Part shown: positions 1 through 53,900 of the stretch, one piece after another
Numbering within the stretch: position 1 is the first letter of the stretch
How the letters are laid out: each line of letters opens with the position of its first letter
From: Eledone cirrhosa
Taxonomy: Eukaryota
Length of the DNA stretch: 64,000 bases
Assembly (NCBI GenBank): GCA_964016885.1
Contig: OZ024751.1
Location: forward strand, 31,744,001-31,808,000
Direction of reading: 5' to 3'
Made by a program: the position numbers and the translations under genes
Notes under the pieces: model-generated
Database searches by the model: none
Seen by the model: the letters and a program-made list of their open reading frames with translations, nothing else
What the model was told of the DNA's origin: nothing

Positions 1-1493
1 GCCATATCAGGATTGCTGAAAACAGAGCAGTATTGTTTCTGCAGTATCTCACCCATGGTTTTAGCATTGTCTTGAAGAGTGCCATTTTCATCAATTAGAG
101 GGCCAACAGTAGAGCCAGTGATTTTGTGTTTTTTTGCAAATGAAAAGAACACTTTGGGATTGAGTTTGATCTTCTCAATGGCCCAGGCCTCTTCAGCTCT
201 TCTCTGATTGTTGATGAGGGACATTATGTTGTTTTGGAGGTTATGTTTTTTAATCTCTAGTGATGAAATGGCAGTCAAGTTGATGTGTTGCTGCTGACAG
301 TATTTCAGATTGTTGATTTTTTTGTTCGTTCTCTTAATTTTTCTGATGAGCGTTTTTCTATTTCTAGGGATTCTGCTCTTAGATTTGTTTATAGTTCTTA
401 ATGGGGTGTGTTTAGCACATATGTTTGTAACAGTGTCCACAAATGTCTGCCAGGACTTTTTGATGTTAGTGGGTGTATGAGTGTGCGTGAAGGACCAGTC
501 GACATGTGCAAGATCATGACTGATCGCTTCCCAGTTTGCATTGTGGAAATCCATAGCGTCAAACGGATGGACAGGAGAAATGACATTGGGTTTGTATATT
601 GGACGGTGGAATCTCAGATCACAGAGAACCATGTCATGATCAGAGAGTAGAGTTTTCTCCACTGCAATATTGTGGATATTGTCAGTGTGATTGCTGAAAA
701 TTAAGTCTAGGACGTTTTTGTGGCACCTCGTTGGTTCGAGCACTAGTTGGGATAGGAAGAAATCATCCATGAAGTCAAGAAGCGATTCCACAGCTTCCCT
801 GTCAGAGGTTGAGGCAGAAGAACCTGGTGGCAGGGTGTTTGTGGACCAGTCAACTCCGGGGAGGTTGAAGTCCCCCATCATTAAGATGTTGTCAGGGTGA
901 CACTCTTGGATGAAACACTTTATGCTGTTGAGGCATTCCTTGAAGCATGGTACAGGCGTTTGGGGTGGCCTATAGAGCCCAACTACTAATAGGTTGTTGG
1001 TTTGACTGAATACAGTGACTGCCTCACAGTATCCATTAGTGAATATGTTCATAGCCTCTGTTGAGAAAGAATTATGGACATAAATGGCAGTTCCGCCCTT
1101 TCTTCTGCCAGCGCGATCAGCACGGATGGCTTTGAAATTTTTCACTTTCACCTCGGCTTCCAAGTGGAGGTTACTGAGATGGGTTTCAGTGAGGACGAAG
1201 AAAGGGATGTGGTTTGGATGGACATCAATCCAGTCCTCCAGGAATTTGATCTTCCATTTTTGAGTATTGGTGGAAGGGCTGATGCCTTGGGCGTTAAGCA
1301 AAAATGTAGAGGCGAGAGTGGATGGTTTTAATTGTTTTGGTGTGTTGTTAATTTGTTTGTTTGTTAATGGCAGCAATGGGAGTTTGTGCAGTGGGGTGAT
1401 AGTGGAGGGTGGTGCTGGGTGATAGCTCGAATGTTTTTTTCCAGTTCTTTTGCCAGATTCATTATGGCTAAAAAAGAGGAAGAAGTTTCCTGT
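1..1493 (-). CDS. CR1-like LINE ORF2, N-terminal part (APE endonuclease and linker); open frame runs off the window edge, no initiating ATG near its start
   Basis: Manual translation of the - strand shows no stop from 1493 to 1: ...FLLNAQGI...FVLTETHL...RADRAGRRKGGTAIYV...VGLYRPP...MMGDFNLPGVDW...EPTR..NVLDLIFSN...LSDHDMV...KLNPKVFFSFAKK...VGPLIDENG...EILQKQYCSVFS. These are APE endonuclease motifs plus a CR1-type linker. Missing from the ORF track, probably because it has no stop in the window. Confidence 0.9.
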
Positions 1494-2554
1494 TTAGAAG
1501 ACTGTTGGTGACTGTGGTAGTGGTTATTTTTATGTAGGTTATGGTTTTTGTTTTTGCTTTTATTTTTAATTTTATTTTCATTTATCCGACGGGTCCCCGG
1601 GAGATGGGTAAAGGGACAATCCCGGTCTAAACACAATCTGTCTCGCAGGGAAAAACGGCAGATTTGTGGATTCCTTGTTTGAGTTATTGGTGGTTGTGTT
1701 GGTGTTAAATTAGAGTATGTATTATGGTGGTGGCTGTTTGTGGGGATAGATCGTTTTGTCCTAGGTAAATGGGTGAATTTGCAGCCACTATCCGTACATA
1801 TTCTATAGCGTAGAGAGTAGCGGCAAATGATGGGGTTTCGAGTGGGTGGGTATATGGGTGTGGGTGTTGTGAGAGGTGTAGATGATGGTTTGGGTAGGAT
1901 TTGACGACCTTTGTGGACTGTGGGAGGGAGAGTTCTTGTTCTGGTATTAGAAGGTAAATTCCTTGACATAGCAGTAGACAAAAATGTTGTAGTAGTAGTA
2001 GTAGTAGTAGGCAGAGATGTTGGCAGTGGTGATGATTGGACTGCTGGGCCAGAGAAAGGATGTGGCGTTTCATGCTGTGAGACAGAGGCTACTGGGGGGT
2101 CAATAGTTTCATTTAGTAGATCGGCCATTGTTGATGAATCAAGGAGTGGTTCACACTGTTGTTGTTGCTGTTGTTGATGTTGTTGTTGTAGCTGTTGTTG
2201 ATGTTGTTGTTGTAGCTGTTGTTGTTGTTGCTGTTGTAGCTGCTGTTGTTGTTGTTGTTGCTGTTGTAGCTGCTGTTGTTGTTGTTGCTGCTGCTGGACA
2301 GCATTCGAAGAGAAAACACACCGTAGTTTATCCAAATGTTTATTGATTAATTTAAAAGCAATTTCGATTTGCTTTAATTTATTTTGAATCTGTTGTTCAG
2401 ATCGAGTTTTCAAAAATTGAACTGTACGTTTAGCAATGTCGTTCAGAGATGAAGCATCTATATTTTCTGTTTGGGAAAGGCAATGCCATGTGTTTATTAG
2501 AATGTCGATTTCATTATCAGACCAGTTCTGTTTGGATTTTTGCTGGTTAGCCAT
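1364..2554 (-). CDS. LINE ORF1 protein: N-terminal Myb/SANT-like (trihelix-type) domain, polyQ, Pro/Thr-rich linker, two CCCH-type zinc fingers
   Basis: 396-aa ORF directly upstream of the endonuclease frame. It contains NWSDNEIDILINTW...IAKR...RSEQQIQNKLKQI and two C-x8-C-x4-C-x3-H motifs (CRYSLRYRICTDSGCKFTH, CRFSLRDRLCLDRDCPFTH). Confidence 0.75.
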   Translation of the reverse strand: MANQQKSKQNWSDNEIDILINTWHCLSQTENIDASSLNDIAKRTVQFLKTRSEQQIQNKLKQIEIAFKLINKHLDKLRCVFSSNAVQQQQQQQQQLQQQQQQQQQLQQQQQQQLQQQHQQQLQQQHQQQQQQQCEPLLDSSTMADLLNETIDPPVASVSQHETPHPFSGPAVQSSPLPTSLPTTTTTTTTFLSTAMSRNLPSNTRTRTLPPTVHKGRQILPKPSSTPLTTPTPIYPPTRNPIICRYSLRYRICTDSGCKFTHLPRTKRSIPTNSHHHNTYSNLTPTQPPITQTRNPQICRFSLRDRLCLDRDCPFTHLPGTRRINENKIKNKSKNKNHNLHKNNHYHSHQQSSKQETSSSFLAIMNLAKELEKNIRAITQHHPPLSPHCTNSHCCH

Positions 2555-2564
2555 TCTAGTTTTG

Positions 2565-3005
2565 AGTGTGTGTGTGTTTTAGTTAAGTATTTCAATATAT
2601 ATATATTTTTTTTTTAAATTTATTTTTGATTTATTTTTGTTTTTTGTTTTTCTTGTGTGTGAGTGAGAAGCGTATATATATATAAATATGAGTATATATA
2701 TATATATATATGTATATTCTGGTTATTTGAAATTAATTAAGTTAATGAAAAGACGAAAGTATATAATAATAATTTGTAGTTAAAGGAAAATGTACTCACA
2801 AGTTCGTGTGTGTGTGTTTTAGTTAAGTATTTCAATATATATATATTTTTTTAAAATTTATTTTTGTTTTTTGTTTTTCTTGTGTGTGAGTGAGAAGCGT
2901 ATATATATAAATATGAGTATATATATATATATATATATGTATATTCTGGTTATTTGAAATTAATGAAAAGACGAAAGTATATAATAGTAATTTGTAGTTA
3001 AAGGA
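2565..3005. repeat. Tandem duplication of a ~200-240 bp unit (putative LINE 5'UTR monomers)
   Basis: gtgtgtgtgttttagttaagtatttcaatatatat...gaaaagacgaaagtatataa...atttgtagttaaagga starts at both ~2566 and ~2806. Confidence 0.85.
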
Positions 3006-8624
<5,619 letters not shown>

Positions 8625-10250
8625 TCCCAGCAGTTCTCCTAAAAATATGTAAGCGGGCCTTAGCAACTCCACTGAAGATGCTCTTCAGAAGCTCCTTGGC
8701 TAGCGGTGTACTACCCAGGGAGCTGAAAGAAGGCACAATATGCCCTATCATAAAGGAGGTAGTAGAGCGGAGGCCAAGAACTATAGGCCAGTCTCCCTGA
8801 CGTCCCATATCAGTAAGGTCATGGAGCGAGTCGTCAGAAAGAAACTAATCACTTTCCTCGAAGAAAATGACCGCCTGACTAGCACGCAACATGGCTTCCG
8901 CCCAGGAAGAAGCTGCCTTACACAGCTGCTACATCACTACGACTGGGTACTGAGACAGCTACTAGACAGCTCACATGTAGACGTGATATATCTTGACTTT
9001 GCGAAGGCCTTTGACAAGGTCGACCACGGAATGATATGTCACAAACTACACGGACTCGGCATAACTGGAAAAGTAGGTGAGTGGCTGCATGGCTTCCTGA
9101 GGGACAGAAGCCAGGCAGTCGCAGCAAATGGGGCTCTCTCGAGGGAAACACCGATAACAAGTGGGGTGCCTCAGGGGACAGTCCTGGGACCACTACTGTT
9201 TTTGCTGGCTCTCTCGGACATGCCCTCTGTGGTGCATGCAACAACATCCCTCACTAGCTATGCTGATGACACTAAGGTAGCACAGGCAATCAAAAACCCG
9301 ACTGACACTGCCCTCTTACAGCAGGATCTGGATGCCATATACAGATGGGCGGAAGAAAACAACATGCAGTTTAATGCTGGCAAATTCCAAGCCCTACAAT
9401 ACAAACCTGCAAACACAAACACAAATATAGCGGAACACAGCTACACAGGACCAGGAGGGACCGATATCCCCGTGTCAAAATCGATACGAGACCTGGGCAT
9501 AGACATGAGCGATGATGCATCTTTTTCTTCACACATCATGAAGGTGGCGACAGCATGTAGACGATTCGCTGGCTGGATCTTGAGGACTTTCCTTACAAGA
9601 GATCGAGACACCATGTTGACACTGTGGAGGACTTTTGTCCTAAGCCGCCTGGACTACTGCTCCCAGCTGTGGTCACCCCATAGTGTCAAACTAACCACAG
9701 AGCTTGAGGCAATCCAGCGAAGCTACACCAAGAGGATTGCCAAGATGAGGGAGACAAGCTACTGGGAGAGGCTGAAGGAACTGAACCTCTACTCCTTGGA
9801 GCGAAGACGGGAGAGATACGCAGTGATCTACATGTGGAAAAATCCTGGAGGGACTAGCACCAAACTTTGGCATTGGGAGCTGACCAACCGTCGAACAGGA
9901 CGTCACTGTGTGGTGCCAAAGGTCCCGTCTTCCACATCTAGAATAAGGAGCAGGTATTGCAATAGCCTGGGATTCAAGGGCCCTCAACTCTTCAACAGGC
10001 TGCCGAGGCATCTGCGAGACTTGCATGACGTGGAGGTGGATGTCTTTAAGAAACATCTCGACACCTTGTTATCCAGGATCCCGGATGAGCCCACAGCAAG
10101 ACACGAGGGAAACCTAAGGGCAGCAGCAACAAACTCCCTCCTACACCAGTGGCCAACCTATACAGGCTGGAGATAAAGTGTGTAGCAGCAAGGGCGGTGC
10201 CCCAGCATGGCCTCAGCCGGATGGCTGAAACAGGTAAAAGAGTAAAAGAG
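8625..10250 (+). mobile_element. 5'-truncated CR1-like LINE (RT domain, C-terminus, 3'UTR) with frameshifts
   Basis: [73 protein letters not shown]. Frameshifts near 8750 and 9840. The 3' end has the hairpin tcagcc-ggat-ggctga (10213-10228) and a short (GTAAAAGA)2 tail. Confidence 0.92.
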
Positions 10251-12362
<2,112 letters not shown>

Positions 12363-13285
12363 CGGACATTTAAGTTGATTATATATATGTATAATATAAT
12401 CTGGCTTCTCTCATCACGGGATAACTTGTCTAACCCATGCTAGCGTGGAAAATGGACGTTAAATGATGATATATATATATATTTTCATTCATACATGTCT
12501 GGACTTGAGTCATTTTTTTTTTTTTTTTTTTTTTTTTGCACCTATTACATAAATACCTTAATCTATTTACTGTTACCGACAACCTAATGTCCTTAAATTT
12601 CTCCTATCCTTACTTTTATTTTCTGTCTTTTTAAGACGATACTGTTAACGTTTCATTGAAATTCCTTCCCGCAAACGACACTGTTTCTTATTCCTCTCAG
12701 CAAGATAGAAGCAATCATCCACCGATTACAACAAACAACGTTGTGACCCTCATAACTTGCATTGAAAAAGAGAATATATAATCTTGTCTTTATATGTCTG
12801 TCGTTTAGAAGGAGTGGTTAATGATACGATCTTATTTCTGAATGTAATATAAAATGTTCGGGGTCAAAGTTTTTTAGGTTAGTTATCTTGACTGTTAAAT
12901 AAATTCGCGTGTCGCACTATTTAGTGTAGTAACTTCAGTTTTACTTGGATCGATTTAATCGACCCTTCCCCCCTCAAATTGCTGGCCTTGTGCCTAAATT
13001 AGAAACAATTATTATTATTTTTATTAGCAGCTCTAGTTCACATAGAAATTTTAAAAAAAGAAAAAACAAAAACTTTTAAAACACACACACATTTAGATAG
13101 AGAGAGAAAGCGAGTGGATGTTGTCAAGCACGTGAAATCTTAAGGATGTATCCACTTGCGTGGCTTAAGTGAGAGTTAACCGTAGTTGTTCTTTTTTGAC
13201 TAAATGACATGATTCCACTGACAACTGCTTGGAAAGAAGTTGTAGTGAGACTATCGTATTCTTCAACATTTCTTTTTATCTACAG

Positions 13286-30481: not shown

Positions 30482-30523
<42 letters not shown>

Positions 30524-33500
30524 GAAAACTAGGTGTTGATGAATGGCTTGTGAGAGCTATACAAGCCATGTATAAAGAAACAGCCAGCAAGGTTAGAATT
30601 AACAACGAATATAGTGAAGAGTTTAGCGTAAAAGTTGGTGTTCATCAGGGCTCCGTCCTTAGCCCCCTACTATTTATTATTGCCCTTCAGACTATAACAG
30701 AGGAGTTCAAGACCGGCTGCCCATGGGAACTCCTATATGCAGATGATCTAACGCTCATAGCTGAATCAATGGCTGAACTAGAGAAGAAATTCCAAACATG
30801 GAAGCATGGCCTAGAATCAAAAGGCCTTAAAGTTAACTTGTCTAAGACTAAAGTTCTAGTTTGTAGGAAGGAAAATAGGGCACCGGTCCCATCTGGGAAA
30901 TGGCCATGCTCAGTGTGTAGGAAAGGAGTAGGTAGAAACTCCATTTTATGTCCCAAATGCAAAGTATGGGTACATAAAAGATGTAGTGGGATCACAGGTA
31001 AACTATCTAAGAATATAGATTTTATATGTGGCCGGTGCTCTGGTGCAATAAGTAGCAGCAAGTGCCCACAGAATACTAACTCGTTCCATTGCACAGGTGG
31101 TTCTATAGAAATAGTGGACAGCTTCCGTTACTTGGGTGATAAAATCAGCAGGGGGGAGGGTGCTCTGAAAGTACAGTAGCTAGAGCCAGAACGGGTTGGA
31201 AAAAGTTGAGAGAGCTTATACCACTATTGGCCGCTAAAGGGTTCTCTCTAAAAATGAAGGGCAGGCTGTATGATGCCTGCATACGAACAGCAATGTTACA
31301 TGGCAGTGAGACCTGGGCATTGTGTGCAGAGGATATATGCAGACTGGAGAGAAACGAAGCTTGCATGCTCCGCTGGATGTGTAATAGTAACATACGTGAA
31401 CGGCAAAGCATAAACGAACTAAGGGAAAAATTAGGAATAAGAGGGATCAGATATTGTTTACTCGAGAGAAGACTACGTTGGTATGGTCATGTGATGCGCA
31501 TGAAAGACGACAGCTGTGTAAAAAAGTGCAGGGCAATAAAAATAGACGGTAGCCACGGAGTAGGCAGACCCAGAAAAACCTGGGACGACTTGATAAATTC
31601 CGACCTCACACACTTACACCTCTCCAAGACAATGTCACTGGACCGAGAGCTTTGGCGCTACACAGTAATAGAGAAGACCCGCCTTACCTAAGTACAAAGT
31701 GAAACCTACTACAATCAGTAGGCACCTCTAACAAAATACACCCCGTCCCACTACCCACACCCCATCCACACCACCCCTTCAATGTAAAGTTATGTTGGTG
31801 TCACAACATCCAGCCCGAAACAAATGAGGTCGTGTAGGTGTCACGACAAAAAAAACACACAGTCCACGCTGTAATGTGGCCGTGTAGGCAACACGGTAAA
31901 AACCTCCCAGTTCCACACTGTAAATGTGGTTGGTGTTAGGAAGGGCATCCAGCCGTAGAAAACCCGCCAGGCAGTCCTATGCGAGCAAGACAACCACTCT
32001 TGCCTCAAGTGTGAAAACCCCCATCCAAACCCATGCAAGCGTGGAACACGGACGCTAAACCTTGATGATGATGATGATGATGATAACTCTTTAAAATTTA
32101 CACATAAAAACATACATACACACACTGCATTTCCTATATCAGTCAAATTGCTACAATAAGAAGTACACTTTCCAATCACAAGGTCCTGGGTTCTAACTCT
32201 ATATTTTTCCATGTAAATAGTTATTTCTCCAAAGTTACACATACATTTAATCCTAAATTACATTTGTACAGGGTGGACTAGGTGCTTGTCAAACCAGTGT
32301 TTGAAAAATAATTTAACAAAATGTTCAGACATAAAATTATCATGGAACATTTTAATTTAAGAACATTTTTAAACAAGCAATTTTGCATCACAGATCCAGA
32401 GTCTGTACCAAGTGACTAGTTATCAAAAGGATTAAAGTGACATAGAATATATATATATATATATATATATAATAACTAGAAATTGATTAACATATATATA
32501 AACATGAATAATCACAGGAGATAATTTTTACAAGTGTGTAACCACACATAGCTAGGTAGGTAACTAAATAAAGTTGACCAGAACTTCAAAAAGTGATTAT
32601 TCATGTTTATATATATGTTAATCAATTTCTAGTTATTATAATATGCTCGGACCTACTCGTTAGAATCTTAGAGCTTATTTTCCGGGTGATATGGCGCATG
32701 TCTTTCTGGCATGACACCCATAATTTTGATTTGGATTAAATTCATTTAATTTATCTTAATTTTGGATATATATATATATATATCATCATCATCATTTAAC
32801 GTCCATATTCCACGCTTGCATGGGTTTGGACGGGGGGTTTCCCACTTGAGGCAAGAGTGGTTGTCTTGCTCGCATAGGACTGCCTGGCGGGTTTTCTACG
32901 GCTGGATGCCCTTCCTAACACCAACCACATTTACAGTGTGGAACTGGGAGCAATGTGAAATAAAGTGTCTTGCTCAAGAAAACAACACATCACCCGGTCT
33001 GAGAATTGAACTCACAACCTTTCGATTGCAAGGCCAATGCTCTAACCACTAAACCATGTGCCACCAATTATATATATATATATATTTCGATTGCAAGGCC
33101 AATGCTCTAACCACTAAGCCATGTGCCTCCAATCTATATATATAAAACTGTGGTTGTCTGTCTGTCTATCGACTTTTGGCACACATCTCCTCTTAGAATC
33201 TCTCACGGAATTGCACCGAAATTGCTATACTTGTACATTGAGCCCTAGCGAAGACATCGGAAAAAAAAAAATTTCAAATTGACCCGCCCTATGTGACGAA
33301 ATCGAATATAATGTATCGATTTTTGAGCGTAAGTTATCAGTTATTTCCCTTTGTTCTGTTTACATTGAGCGTCTTACGTAAAAAATTACGCTGGCTTTAA
33401 CAGTTGTCGAGCCAGCAAAATAATGACCTGCAAAATTCATCAGTTCGAACACTAAGCTTCCCTTTTGCTTCATTTCCATTTAAAAGCATTTTAAAACAAT

Positions 33501-50992: not shown

Positions 50993-53900
50993 CAGAACGA
51001 GATGTATATATATTACAAGTGGCTAGAGAGGGAGACGAGAGATGGAATAGACTTGACTTCAGTGGGGCTCTGATCGATTTAGATCAATTGAAAGCTTTTG
51101 ATAGGGTTGACTATTGATACCTGGAGGCTGTTCTTCAGCAGCCAGTTTCGGTCTTGTCTTCAGAGGCTGGATCGCTGCAAGGCACAGCAGCATCTGTTTG
51201 GCGGTCAACGTAAATGGCCACTTATTGGAACCATTTCAGATCAGGCGCTCAGTCCGTTAAGTATGCCCTCTCTCCCCTCTGCTGTATATACTGACTCTCG
51301 AGCCACCACTGCGGAAGCTGGAGCTGTTATAAGGCATCCTGCTTGAACCGGGATGTGGAATGGAAGGGCTGCTTCAGCTTATGCAGATGATGTCACCATG
51401 ATAATGTTGAACACCTTGGAAATTGAAATGATTGGCAGTTTTTTAGAGAAATATGAAACATTGATAGAAGTAAAATTCAACCCAGATAATGTATACTTAT
51501 TTAAATGGTCTTTCTTTGTTTTGTTTTTTAGTTAAAGAAATTACATATCCAAATATTGGTGGATGGCAATTCATTGGAATTAATTGAAAAGATTCTGTCT
51601 GTCCAAAGTATCGATGATTGGAATACAGCTTCTGTTGTCCAGAATGCTCTGGTATATTCTATTGACTATACCTGGTAAGTATTTGTCTCTCATATAGACA
51701 CATGCCTGTCTGTGTCTAAAGATGCTCAATATCTATGTATATGTGTGTGTGAAAATGTATATAAATCAATTGTTTTATATATATATATATATGTGTGTGT
51801 GTGAGTGTATGTGTGTGTGTATATGTAATTGTGTGTATATATGTGTGTATATGTATGTATATATATATGTATATATATTGTGTGTATAAGAGAGAAAGTG
51901 TGTATATATATATATATAGACATTTATTCTATAAATATGTGTGAGTGTGAAAGTATAGTCTTTTGTTATGTGTAAAAGTGGAAACAGTCTATTGTATGTG
52001 TTTCATCATCATCATTTTACGTCCGCTTTTCCCTGCTTGCAAGGGTGGGACGGGTCCTATTCAGCGCACTATCTCTCCACTTGTCACGGTCCTTCGTCAT
52101 TTCTTCGGTGAGTTTCAGCGATATGAGGTCTGCTCTCACCACCTTTGCTCATGTTTTACGTAGTCTACCTCTACTGCGTCTTCCTTCTACTGACATTTCT
52201 TGGCACTTCTTTACCCAGCAGTCATCCTCCATACCATCACATGTCCATACCATCTCAGCCTTCTCTCCTGCACTCTACAACTTATCCTTCTTATACCCAG
52301 TTTCTTTCTTAACTCGTCTATGCTTGGTCGTTCACGCACATTTACACTGCACATCCAACGGAGCATACTTGCTTCATTTCTCTCCAGCCGGCACATATCC
52401 TCTGCAGTTGCTGTCGATGTCTTACTACCATGCAGCATCGCGCATCTCACACAGGCATCATATAACCGTCCTTTCATACGCAGGGAGAAACCCTTCTTTG
52501 TCAACAAAGGAAGCAGCTCCCTAAACTTCTTCCAACCCATCCTTATTCTAGATACTATGGCCTCGCCCCCCCCCCCCCCTCCCATGCTAATCTGATCACC
52601 TAGGTACCGGAAGCTATCAACTATTCTATAGAACCCACCTGCATTGGAAAAATGTGTCTATCACTGCGATTAATACTGCCAACTTTCCCTGTACATCTAC
52701 TGCATACGTAGTTTTCCCTACCTGTTAGTTTGCCTGCTATCCCACTACATCTCTTGTGTACCCAAGATCTGCATTGCGTACATTTTATGGAATTTATGCC
52801 AGTTCCTTTCCTAGATATTGAACATGGCCCTGATGGAATCGGAGTATTGTCCTCTCTTCTACTTATCATCACTTTTGTCTTAGCTATGTTCACTCTCGGT
52901 CCTCTTGATTCCAACTGCTGTTTCCATAGCCAGAATTTATTCTCTAGCTTCTCTACTGATTCTGCTATAAGAACCAGATCGTCAGCATAGAGAAGTTCCC
53001 ATGGACAGCCAGTCTTAAACTCCTCTGTTATGGCTTGGAGGACTACAATGAACAAGAGTGGGCTGAGGACTGAACCCTGATGTACACCTACTTGTATCTG
53101 GAATTCCCCACTAAACTCCATTCCTACTCTCACTTTACTGACAGCACCCCTGTTCATAGCTTGCACTGCCCTCACAAGCCATTCCTCTACACCTAGTTTC
53201 CTTAGGGACCACCAGATGACAGATCGGGGTACCCTATCAAAGGCGTTCTCTAGGTCAACAAAAGCTAAGTATAGTGGATTATTCTTCTCTAAGAACTTGT
53301 AGTTGCCTCACTAAGAAGAGAGCATCTGTTGTACTTTTCCGAGGCACAAAACCAAACTGTATCTCATCTAGTTTGACCCTTTCTCTAATCAGTTGCACTA
53401 ATATTCTCTCTACCACTTTCATAATTGATCCATCAGCTTTATACCCCTATAATTGCTCCTCTCTAGAGCATCCCCTTTACCTTTGTAGCAATTTATGAGA
53501 ATACTGCTGCACCAGTCTTTGAGTATGACACCACCATATATAGCCTGATTGATGATGCGTGCAACCAGTTTAATGCCTACTTCATCTGATGTCTTCAGCA
53601 TCTCAGCAACTATCCCCGACAGTCCAGCAGCCTTACCATTCTTCATTTCTTTAATTGCCTCTTGGACCCTATATTCGTCAATCTCAATAGCTGGTCCCTC
53701 TGTCGGGTCTATTGGGGGTAATTTCTCTCTCTCCCATTCGTTCTCCACATTCATCAGTCTCTCATAGTGACATTTCCAGGCCTCCTTTTTTTGATCATTC
53801 GTGACACTAAGTACACTGGCATCATTCCGGACACACTTATCTCCAACAACATCCTGATTTGCATTGACACACTGCCTTGCAATGCGGAACACTGCACGTC

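Follow-up and report, generated by a model that had tools for sequence, protein, structure and literature searches.

A CR1-type LINE of Eledone cirrhosa with a Myb/SANT-like and CCCH zinc-finger ORF1, a predicted −1 frameshift, and insertions in TA microsatellites

We analyzed a 64,000-nt stretch of the Eledone cirrhosa genome (GenBank assembly GCA_964016885.1, contig OZ024751.1, positions 31,744,001 to 31,808,000 of the forward strand; hereafter the window), which carries near its start, on the minus strand, a copy of a CR1-type long interspersed nuclear element (LINE) that we call family A. The first open reading frame (ORF) of this element, ORF1, combines two CCCH zinc fingers with a Myb/SANT-like domain for which DNA binding is predicted; it is a real and apparently undescribed variant of ORF1, in an element of a known kind. 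Copies of family A lie in TA microsatellites, as do those of family B, which has a homologous N-terminal module, whereas most copies of family C, which has a PHD-like domain, do not. We read these observations as the replacement of a PHD domain by a Myb domain, with a −1 slip that would fuse the Myb domain to the endonuclease and reverse transcriptase (RT) and steer the element into TA microsatellites. Taken whole, this reading falls in our judgment just short of an even chance, and its parts differ in strength.

ORF1 (1364 to 2554, minus strand) is 396 amino acids (aa) long from ATG to stop, as the initial annotation had it, and the features named there were all found: a trihelix/Myb-SANT-like N terminus, a CAG/CAA-encoded polyglutamine (polyQ) tract, a Pro/Thr linker, and two duplicated CCCH fingers preceded by TRNPxIC. 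On the minus strand, the three-helix Myb/SANT-like domain (aa 9 to 74, extended as far as aa 81 by a helix specific to the lineage) occupies 2312 to 2530 and the polyQ tract (aa 87 to 133; 41 Q among 47 residues) occupies 2156 to 2296, followed by a Pro/Thr/Ser-rich linker (1844 to 2155) under weaker constraint, with a ratio of nonsynonymous to synonymous substitution rates (dN/dS) of about 0.46 in one copy pair with aligned ORF1s. The finger cores, both C-x8-C-x4-C-x3-H, lie at 1825 to 1769 (TRNPIIC; 1769 to 1843 with the lead-in) and 1660 to 1604 (TRNPQIC; 1604 to 1678 with the lead-in). They matched the zf-C3H1 profile (PF10650) with an E value of 7.6e-4 and 19.6 bits against a cutoff of 20.9, and their ligand spacing is kept in distant homologues and in A2, an older sister family in the same genome with the same Myb-polyQ-two-finger layout. 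The finger of family B scored 23.1 bits with PF00642 (cutoff, 20.5). No RRM, CCHC, Tnp22, esterase, or PHD match was found in the family A ORF1 in Pfam searches up to an E value of 1, in which hmmscan could miss a very divergent RRM; by its sequence, the protein does not appear to fit ORF1 types I to IV, with their RRM, CCHC knuckle, Tnp22, PHD, and esterase modules.

A C-terminal (S/N/D)FL helix, conserved in the ORF1 family, is encoded at 1415 to 1480 (minus strand), where the same nucleotides also encode the start of the ORF2 frame. His/Cys-rich tails (HCCH, HQCCC) end the A and B ORF1s inside this dual-coding overlap. The initial annotation had placed ORF1 immediately 5′ of an apurinic/apyrimidinic endonuclease (APE) frame; such a frame does adjoin ORF1, but it runs from 1493 downwards and overlaps ORF1 by 130 nt. 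ORF2 (1 to 1493, minus strand; 980 aa stop to stop in the window copy) encodes this endonuclease, with the RT lying past the window edge.

Searches of the 3.0-Gb assembly gave 538 first-look candidates for the ORF1 start of family A, and 40/40 scored copies were 100% identical over 271 nt. ORF1 was whole and open in 28 of 30 fetched copies and ran on into ORF2 in all 30, so it is not a chance frame; the N terminus was thus linked to the same ORF2 in every copy examined, and this family-wide linkage rules out an assembly chimera. A host gene caught beside one insertion was also rejected as the source of ORF1. Among 20 longer copies, ORF2 was open (1,045 to 1,053 aa) in 16 and both frames were open in 15; in the window copy, the loss of about 200 nt close to the ORF2 end replaces the last 76 residues with 11 out-of-frame ones, as worked out by hand. 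The ORF2 endonuclease matched PF14529 (E = 1.3e-13), the adjacent stretch completes ORF2 with the RT, and RT motifs are present in P0005, with a match to L1 ORF2p (E = 5e-22). The predicted order of an N-terminal APE endonuclease followed by an RT is that of a CR1-type LINE. The 3′ tail is built of TTCAAAGTTA-type units in 21/21 copies, and the 5′ ends are varied; these are the short tandem 3′ repeats and the frequent 5′ truncation of the CR1 clade. Family A is a young, abundant LINE.

The 5′ untranslated region (UTR) of the window copy (2555 to 3005, minus strand) is truncated: where other copies have a full UTR of about 730 nt, it comprises about two 240-nt monomers that contain (TA)n runs. 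In the window copy and in another copy (L032), it has short GAGCAGTT repeats at its start and then one or two of these monomers, whose number differs between family A copies. The polyQ tract ranged from 34 to 47 residues among 29 copies, a range that fits slippage, and selection on its length was rejected. By word matching alone, RNA runs contained 5 to 7% of the words and two other organisms 21 to 30%, and we claim no wider range from these figures.

On sequence and modeling evidence, the N terminus is a Myb/SANT-like domain under purifying selection and with a predicted DNA-binding role. In the window copy, aa 9 to 74 matched PF13837 (Myb_DNA-bind_4) with an E value of 5.6e-5 and 23.9 bits, below the cutoff of 27 bits; the W-S-x2-E-x3-L-I-x2-W start and the R-S/T-x2-Q-x3-K-x-K helix are common to the LINE domain and this profile. 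The orthologous domains of A2 (31.6 bits, and many further A2 loci) and of P0006 (31.7 bits) exceeded the cutoff, and family B scored 16.4 bits. The library proteins P0006, P0008, P0010, and P0020, which like P0007 are known as proteins alone, aligned across the domain. The dN/dS of the family A domain against 16 A2 copies was 0.18 to 0.27 (median, 0.22), indicating purifying selection in 16/16 comparisons, the copies not being independent; this was a check suggested at the outset. R46, Q50, K54, and K56 of helix 3 were invariant in 15 sequences. A model built from 15 LINE-type sequences (predicted local distance difference test score [pLDDT], 87) had helices at 8 to 24, 29 to 40, and 48 to 67, and its VIA neighbors were homeodomain and helix-turn-helix (HTH) DNA-binding domains, with a top Z score of 7.8 and a root mean square deviation of 1.7 over 62 residues; Z scores were 6.4 for Zeste and 6.0 for GT-1. 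A sequence search of the PDB with the Myb profile gave no Myb match. An earlier model was shaped mainly by the polyQ helix, and its VIA matches were set aside as meaningless.

Compared with host PF13837 domains of the trihelix GT-1-like kind, such as that at locus L130, the LINE domain has a shorter loop between helices 1 and 2, has an added C-terminal helix confined to the LINE copies, and sits in a retrotransposon ORF1. Profile comparison of the family B N terminus with the A-type profile gave a probability of 96.9 (E = 1.7e-10), with the extended extra helix included in the alignment, whereas the two host Myb-like loci tested scored lower against the LINE domain (hhalign probability of 81% for L130 and 0.1% for the other). 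Host-like PF13837 open frames were seen at L128 to L132 and at L147; L130 and L131, which lie near each other on a single contig, are the closer to the LINE domain of the two host types tested. Harbinger Myb-like proteins also carry Myb/SANT-like domains.

The ORF2 frame is −1 relative to ORF1 in families A, B, and C and opens 6 to 78 nt upstream of a slippery heptamer, U_UUU_UUA, which in the window copy lies at 1469 to 1475 (minus strand), in frame on conserved Phe-Leu codons. No AUG was found ahead of the first endonuclease motif in the ORF2 of A, B, or C. The in-frame heptamer was present in 30/30 copies of A, 15/16 of B, 11/12 of C, and 11/15 of A2. Given Phe-Leu and the codon usage, its presence by chance would be expected at about 1% per family and about 8e-7 jointly over three families; in the three copies counted, U_UUU_UUA was 1 of 20 Phe-Leu pairs. 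The motif has the X_XXY_YYZ form in the zero frame and is followed by an open −1 frame, and U_UUU_UUA is the HIV shift heptamer (PMC5009743). The homologues P0096, P0102, and P0103 have fingers, endonuclease, and RT as one protein in a single frame. We consider it probable that ORF1 and ORF2 are fused by frameshifting, the predicted product being about 1,400 aa long.

Word-index protein searches with the A and B ORF1s gave no useful match, and the ORF1 relatives described here were found by an exhaustive phmmer search of the protein library. The family A fingers matched unnamed library proteins with a PHD-like domain and three tandem CCCH fingers, a lineage comprising family C, P0014, P0017, P0018, P0096, P0102, and P0103, for which we found no published name. 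The initial annotation had suggested that the ORF1 type of family A may be undescribed; in the literature searched, this holds for the combination of Myb and CCCH, but the CCCH part itself is widespread in these PHD-bearing ORF1s. With one such protein as the query, we found family C, whose 452-aa ORF1 has a PHD-like domain and three fingers and gave no Myb match. Full-length copies of family B have a 320-aa ORF1 with a Myb-like N terminus, an E/K-rich linker, and one CCCH finger. In a comparison with 6 references of the PHD-bearing type, finger 1 of family A had a mean score of 73 to ancestral finger 3, versus 16 to ancestral finger 1 and 12 to ancestral finger 2, and its finger 2 scored 80 to ancestral finger 3, versus 5 and 11; the single B finger corresponded to ancestral finger 1. 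The C-terminal FL helix is common to A, B, and the PHD-bearing ORF1s. It is very likely, judging from these sequences, that the family A ORF1 descends from such an ORF1 by a domain swap. In family A, the PHD domain was likely replaced by Myb, fingers 1 and 2 lost, and finger 3 duplicated, family A finger 2 being the putative ortholog of finger 3 and finger 1 its duplicate; in family B, finger 1 alone was likely kept. P0014 has an N-terminal Tudor-knot/MBT-like region (E = 9e-4), which appears to be another chromatin-reader swap within the same ORF1 family. The Atlas returned no result for the window ORF1 or P0006, and for P0017 it returned only weak CCCH clusters (0.82 to 0.83).

Pairwise ORF2 identities were 37% (A-B), 39% (A-C), and 41% (B-C). 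RT trees were built quickly from 91 rows and then carefully, under LG+G4, from 30 hand-picked rows of those 91. Families A, B, and C formed a strongly supported lineage apart from the outgroup P0121, a bird RT protein that we take to be CR1-type, in a tree without curated CR1 clade references. Family A grouped with P0103 (97/97) and family B with family C and P0096 (98/97), and these partners are finger-bearing and lack Myb. A single Myb-bearing RT clade was rejected, the approximately unbiased (AU) test giving a P value of 4e-5 against monophyly of A, A2, and B. Because the RT tree rejects A and B as one clade, the Myb module has probably been passed between RT lineages. Exchange among the families does occur, as A and A2 are mosaic in synonymous divergence (dS, 1.1 to 1.7 in the Myb domain and the endonuclease and 0.5 to 0.6 in the RT), a contrast that points to a recombination breakpoint between endonuclease and RT. 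The simplest history would start from an ancestor with a PHD-like domain and three CCCH fingers, in which Myb was captured once and later passed to another lineage; histories with two Myb captures from related donors, or with many losses, would be less simple.

Use of TA targets tracked the presence of the Myb module, not the branching of the RT tree. A 3′ flank was scored as TA when at least 60% of the steps in the 30 nt following the tail were TA/AT. By this rule, it was TA in 21/21 copies of A and 17/17 of B and in 6/30 of C (B versus C, P = 4e-8), against backgrounds of 1.4%, 5.5%, and 12.8%. Two C copies (L192 and L193) share one flank, leaving 6/29 distinct, and C copies selected by ORF1 had TA flanks in 3/11 by eye; for A2 the count was 5/6 by eye, with one copy rearranged, and 2/2 by rule. 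The 5′ flank was TA in 19/21 copies of A and 16/16 of B, with 5′ junctions at many element positions. One of the two misses in A (L031) is the end of the fetched sequence, where the window itself shows TA, and the other (L034) is a true exception. C/G interruptions in the two TA flanks of a copy agreed in strand sign in 28/31 cases (P = 1e-5), so A and B inserted into existing TA arrays. Both junctions of A and B thus lie within one preexisting repeat type, and these are microsatellite-targeting LINEs. At the family level, the comparison of TA use is two versus one.

Such flanks could also arise without ORF1, by pairing of the RNA tail with the target, by survival in inert repeats, or by repeats added or grown later. 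TA repeats fill about 13% of the window, and the tails of A (GTTA) and B (GTA) offer 2 to 3 nt of pairing with TA repeats. However, the AAT tails of family C could pair too, yet 24/30 C copies lie outside TA; young, near-identical A copies are already all in TA; and the interruptions that agree on both flanks point to an array that predates the insertion. We regard this account as improbable.

In the mechanism that we propose, free ORF1p would coat the element RNA through its CCCH fingers, which, by analogy with other such fingers, probably bind that RNA. A −1 slip at U_UUU_UUA would join the Myb domain and fingers to the endonuclease and RT, in a product rarer than free ORF1p, whose single chain would run from Myb through the fingers and the endonuclease to the RT and so resemble R2 proteins in layout. 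This product, or ORF1p in the particle, would hold on to (TA)n via Myb, and a loosely specific endonuclease would then nick there. That Myb contributes to TA targeting is a circumstantial proposal, which we hold tentatively and somewhat short of an even chance. Its boldest form, in which insertion is redirected to (TA)n by a portable ORF1 Myb module instead of by the endonuclease, the module having been captured, passed between distant RT lineages, and fused by −1 frameshifting into a layout convergent with R2, is unlikely to be right in full.

The main alternative is that the endonuclease, or easy nicking of TA repeats, sets the target, the ORF1 architecture and frameshift being real. Families A and B would then have converged on a TA safe haven, and Myb would be a general chromatin- or protein-contact module in place of PHD. 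In TRAS1/SART1, the target goes with the endonuclease when this is swapped (PMC1919474), and Naiad Penelope-like elements (PLEs) favor (TA)n without a Myb ORF1 (PMC8557442), so TA is reachable in other ways. This family of ORF1s also swaps its N-terminal readers freely, with PHD found in C and P0017 and the Tudor-knot-like region in P0014. Against this, the alternative needs two independent shifts to near-absolute TA use, exactly in the lineages with homologous Myb domains; the endonuclease hairpin region has the same length in B as in the nontargeting C and is one residue longer in A, a weak argument, and no solved LINE endonuclease matched that of B. We consider the endonuclease account an equal rival on the matter of targeting, itself below an even chance.

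Myb/SANT-like domains are typical of transcription regulators, and Myb could instead regulate the element's own transcription through the 5′ UTR monomers, with targeting a separate matter. The TA runs in the roughly 240-nt monomers of the family A UTR would suit such a role. However, the A and B UTRs look unrelated by eye, that of B being CT-rich, yet the recognition-helix residues are kept, and the feature common to A and B is the TA target. Self-regulation as the explanation therefore has little probability in our view.

Several points weigh against our overall reading. The window copy's own Myb-like domain is under the Pfam cutoff; VIA Z scores below 8 may reflect a common fold alone; and Foldseek with the Myb model gave no match under an E value of 0.001. 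No stimulatory RNA structure was found 3′ of the heptamer (z, −1.3 to +1.1, by a rough shuffle without pseudoknots), and dual coding could add to the codon bias, because the −1 frame reads Phe-Phe there. The group rejected by the AU test took in two B relatives picked after the first tree. As for targeting, a further set of A copies gave 10/12 by the TA rule (11 by eye), and family C, without Myb, is itself weakly TA-enriched (20%), as the endonuclease account would allow. The flank P values overstate the link, since copies are not independent events; it is one of two Myb lineages versus one PHD family, and it stays so because genome searches for further families of the lineage returned A, A2, B, and C alone.

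In the window, the family A copy is flanked on its 5′ side by a (TA/TACA)n microsatellite (3006 to 8520). A 35-nt nonrepeat island (8521 to 8555) lies in the TA array just before a 5′-truncated family B copy (RT and tail; 8625 to 10251, plus strand), and a (TA)n-rich microsatellite (10252 to 12440) flanks that copy. At L092, a family A endonuclease fragment directly follows a B copy, and in the flanks at L042, L051, L097, and L103, open frames that we take to be GIY-YIG/Penelope-like adjoin TA arrays holding A and B copies; elements thus stack in the same TA arrays. RTE-like LINE fragments at 30520 to 31690 (plus strand), at 52624 to 53307 (minus strand), and at L031 (2188 to 2706) have a PHD finger directly after the RT in the same frame (RVT_1 and PF00628 above the cutoff), and the 5′ end of the first adjoins a (TA)n run.

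Kibi, Koshi, Waldo, and Dong are microsatellite-targeting retroelements of other clades and with other endonucleases. The Naiad PLEs, again of another clade and with another endonuclease than family A, likewise insert into simple repeats, where target duplications cannot be read (PMC8557442). Closer to family A are the elements with CR1/L2 ORF1 types I to V, which are Jockey-group LINEs with the same APE-plus-RT ORF2; their ORF1s are modular, shuffled, and probably laterally exchanged, and a general role in targeting has been proposed for their PHD module (Metcalfe and Casane 2014, PMC4120745). The terms CCCH, Myb, SANT, and trihelix occur nowhere in the text of that survey, the mollusc entries of which are oyster CR1s alone, and CCCH and Myb are absent, by term search of the text covered, from two further surveys, one of vertebrate CR1s published in 2026 (PMC13343379) and one of gastropods (PMC11203168). 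The covered parts of PMC10294476, PMC12220107, PMC4700185, PMC3894237, and PMC11835228 hold nothing on such an ORF1. In the literature searched, which did not extend to Repbase/Dfam, most subscription papers, and several supplements, we found no CR1 that is (TA)n-specific, that has a Myb or CCCH ORF1, or that uses a frameshift, and within that literature the suggestion of an undescribed ORF1 type stands. Against the PHD-bearing ORF1s with three fingers, A and B share the finger sequences and the C-terminal FL helix but have Myb for PHD, with strict TA flanks where those of C are mostly not TA; with family C, they also share the slippery heptamer and the −1 overlap.

In R2/RLE elements (RLE, restriction-like endonuclease), recognition of the target is aided by a Myb domain and zinc fingers that lie on the N-terminal side of the RT, and the predicted family A fusion would have a similar domain order (PMC13708176). 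Here, however, an APE-type endonuclease precedes the RT, Myb is in a separate ORF1, and the fingers are CCCH. Membership in the R2/RLE group was rejected, as family A has two overlapping ORFs and an APE endonuclease, not a single ORF with a C-terminal RLE. Family A is at most an R2 work-alike, and we claim no common origin of the two Myb domains. The Dictyostelium element TRE5-A is an APE LINE whose ORF2 requires a −1 frameshift and whose ORF1p is tied to site choice through contacts with TFIIIB proteins near tRNA genes (PMC5911963), whereas direct reading of (TA)n DNA by the Myb domain is proposed here. ORF1p has also been proposed to localize the particles of R1, SART1, HeT-A, and TART (PMC1919474).

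Little is known of what ORF1 does in elements other than L1, and the endonuclease is given most of the credit for site choice by APE LINEs. Families B and C, RT relatives that differ in ORF1 N terminus and target use, form a natural comparison set with family A, a distant lineage that has the same module and target as B and many intact young copies; whether ORF1 can set the target is therefore directly testable by domain swaps. Even should targeting by Myb prove wrong, the two apparently undescribed architectures of ORF1 and the conserved frameshift signal would stand. If the proposal is true, it would provide gene-insertion tools of the APE type with a modular handle for targeting and would help explain the pile-up of these LINEs in TA repeats.

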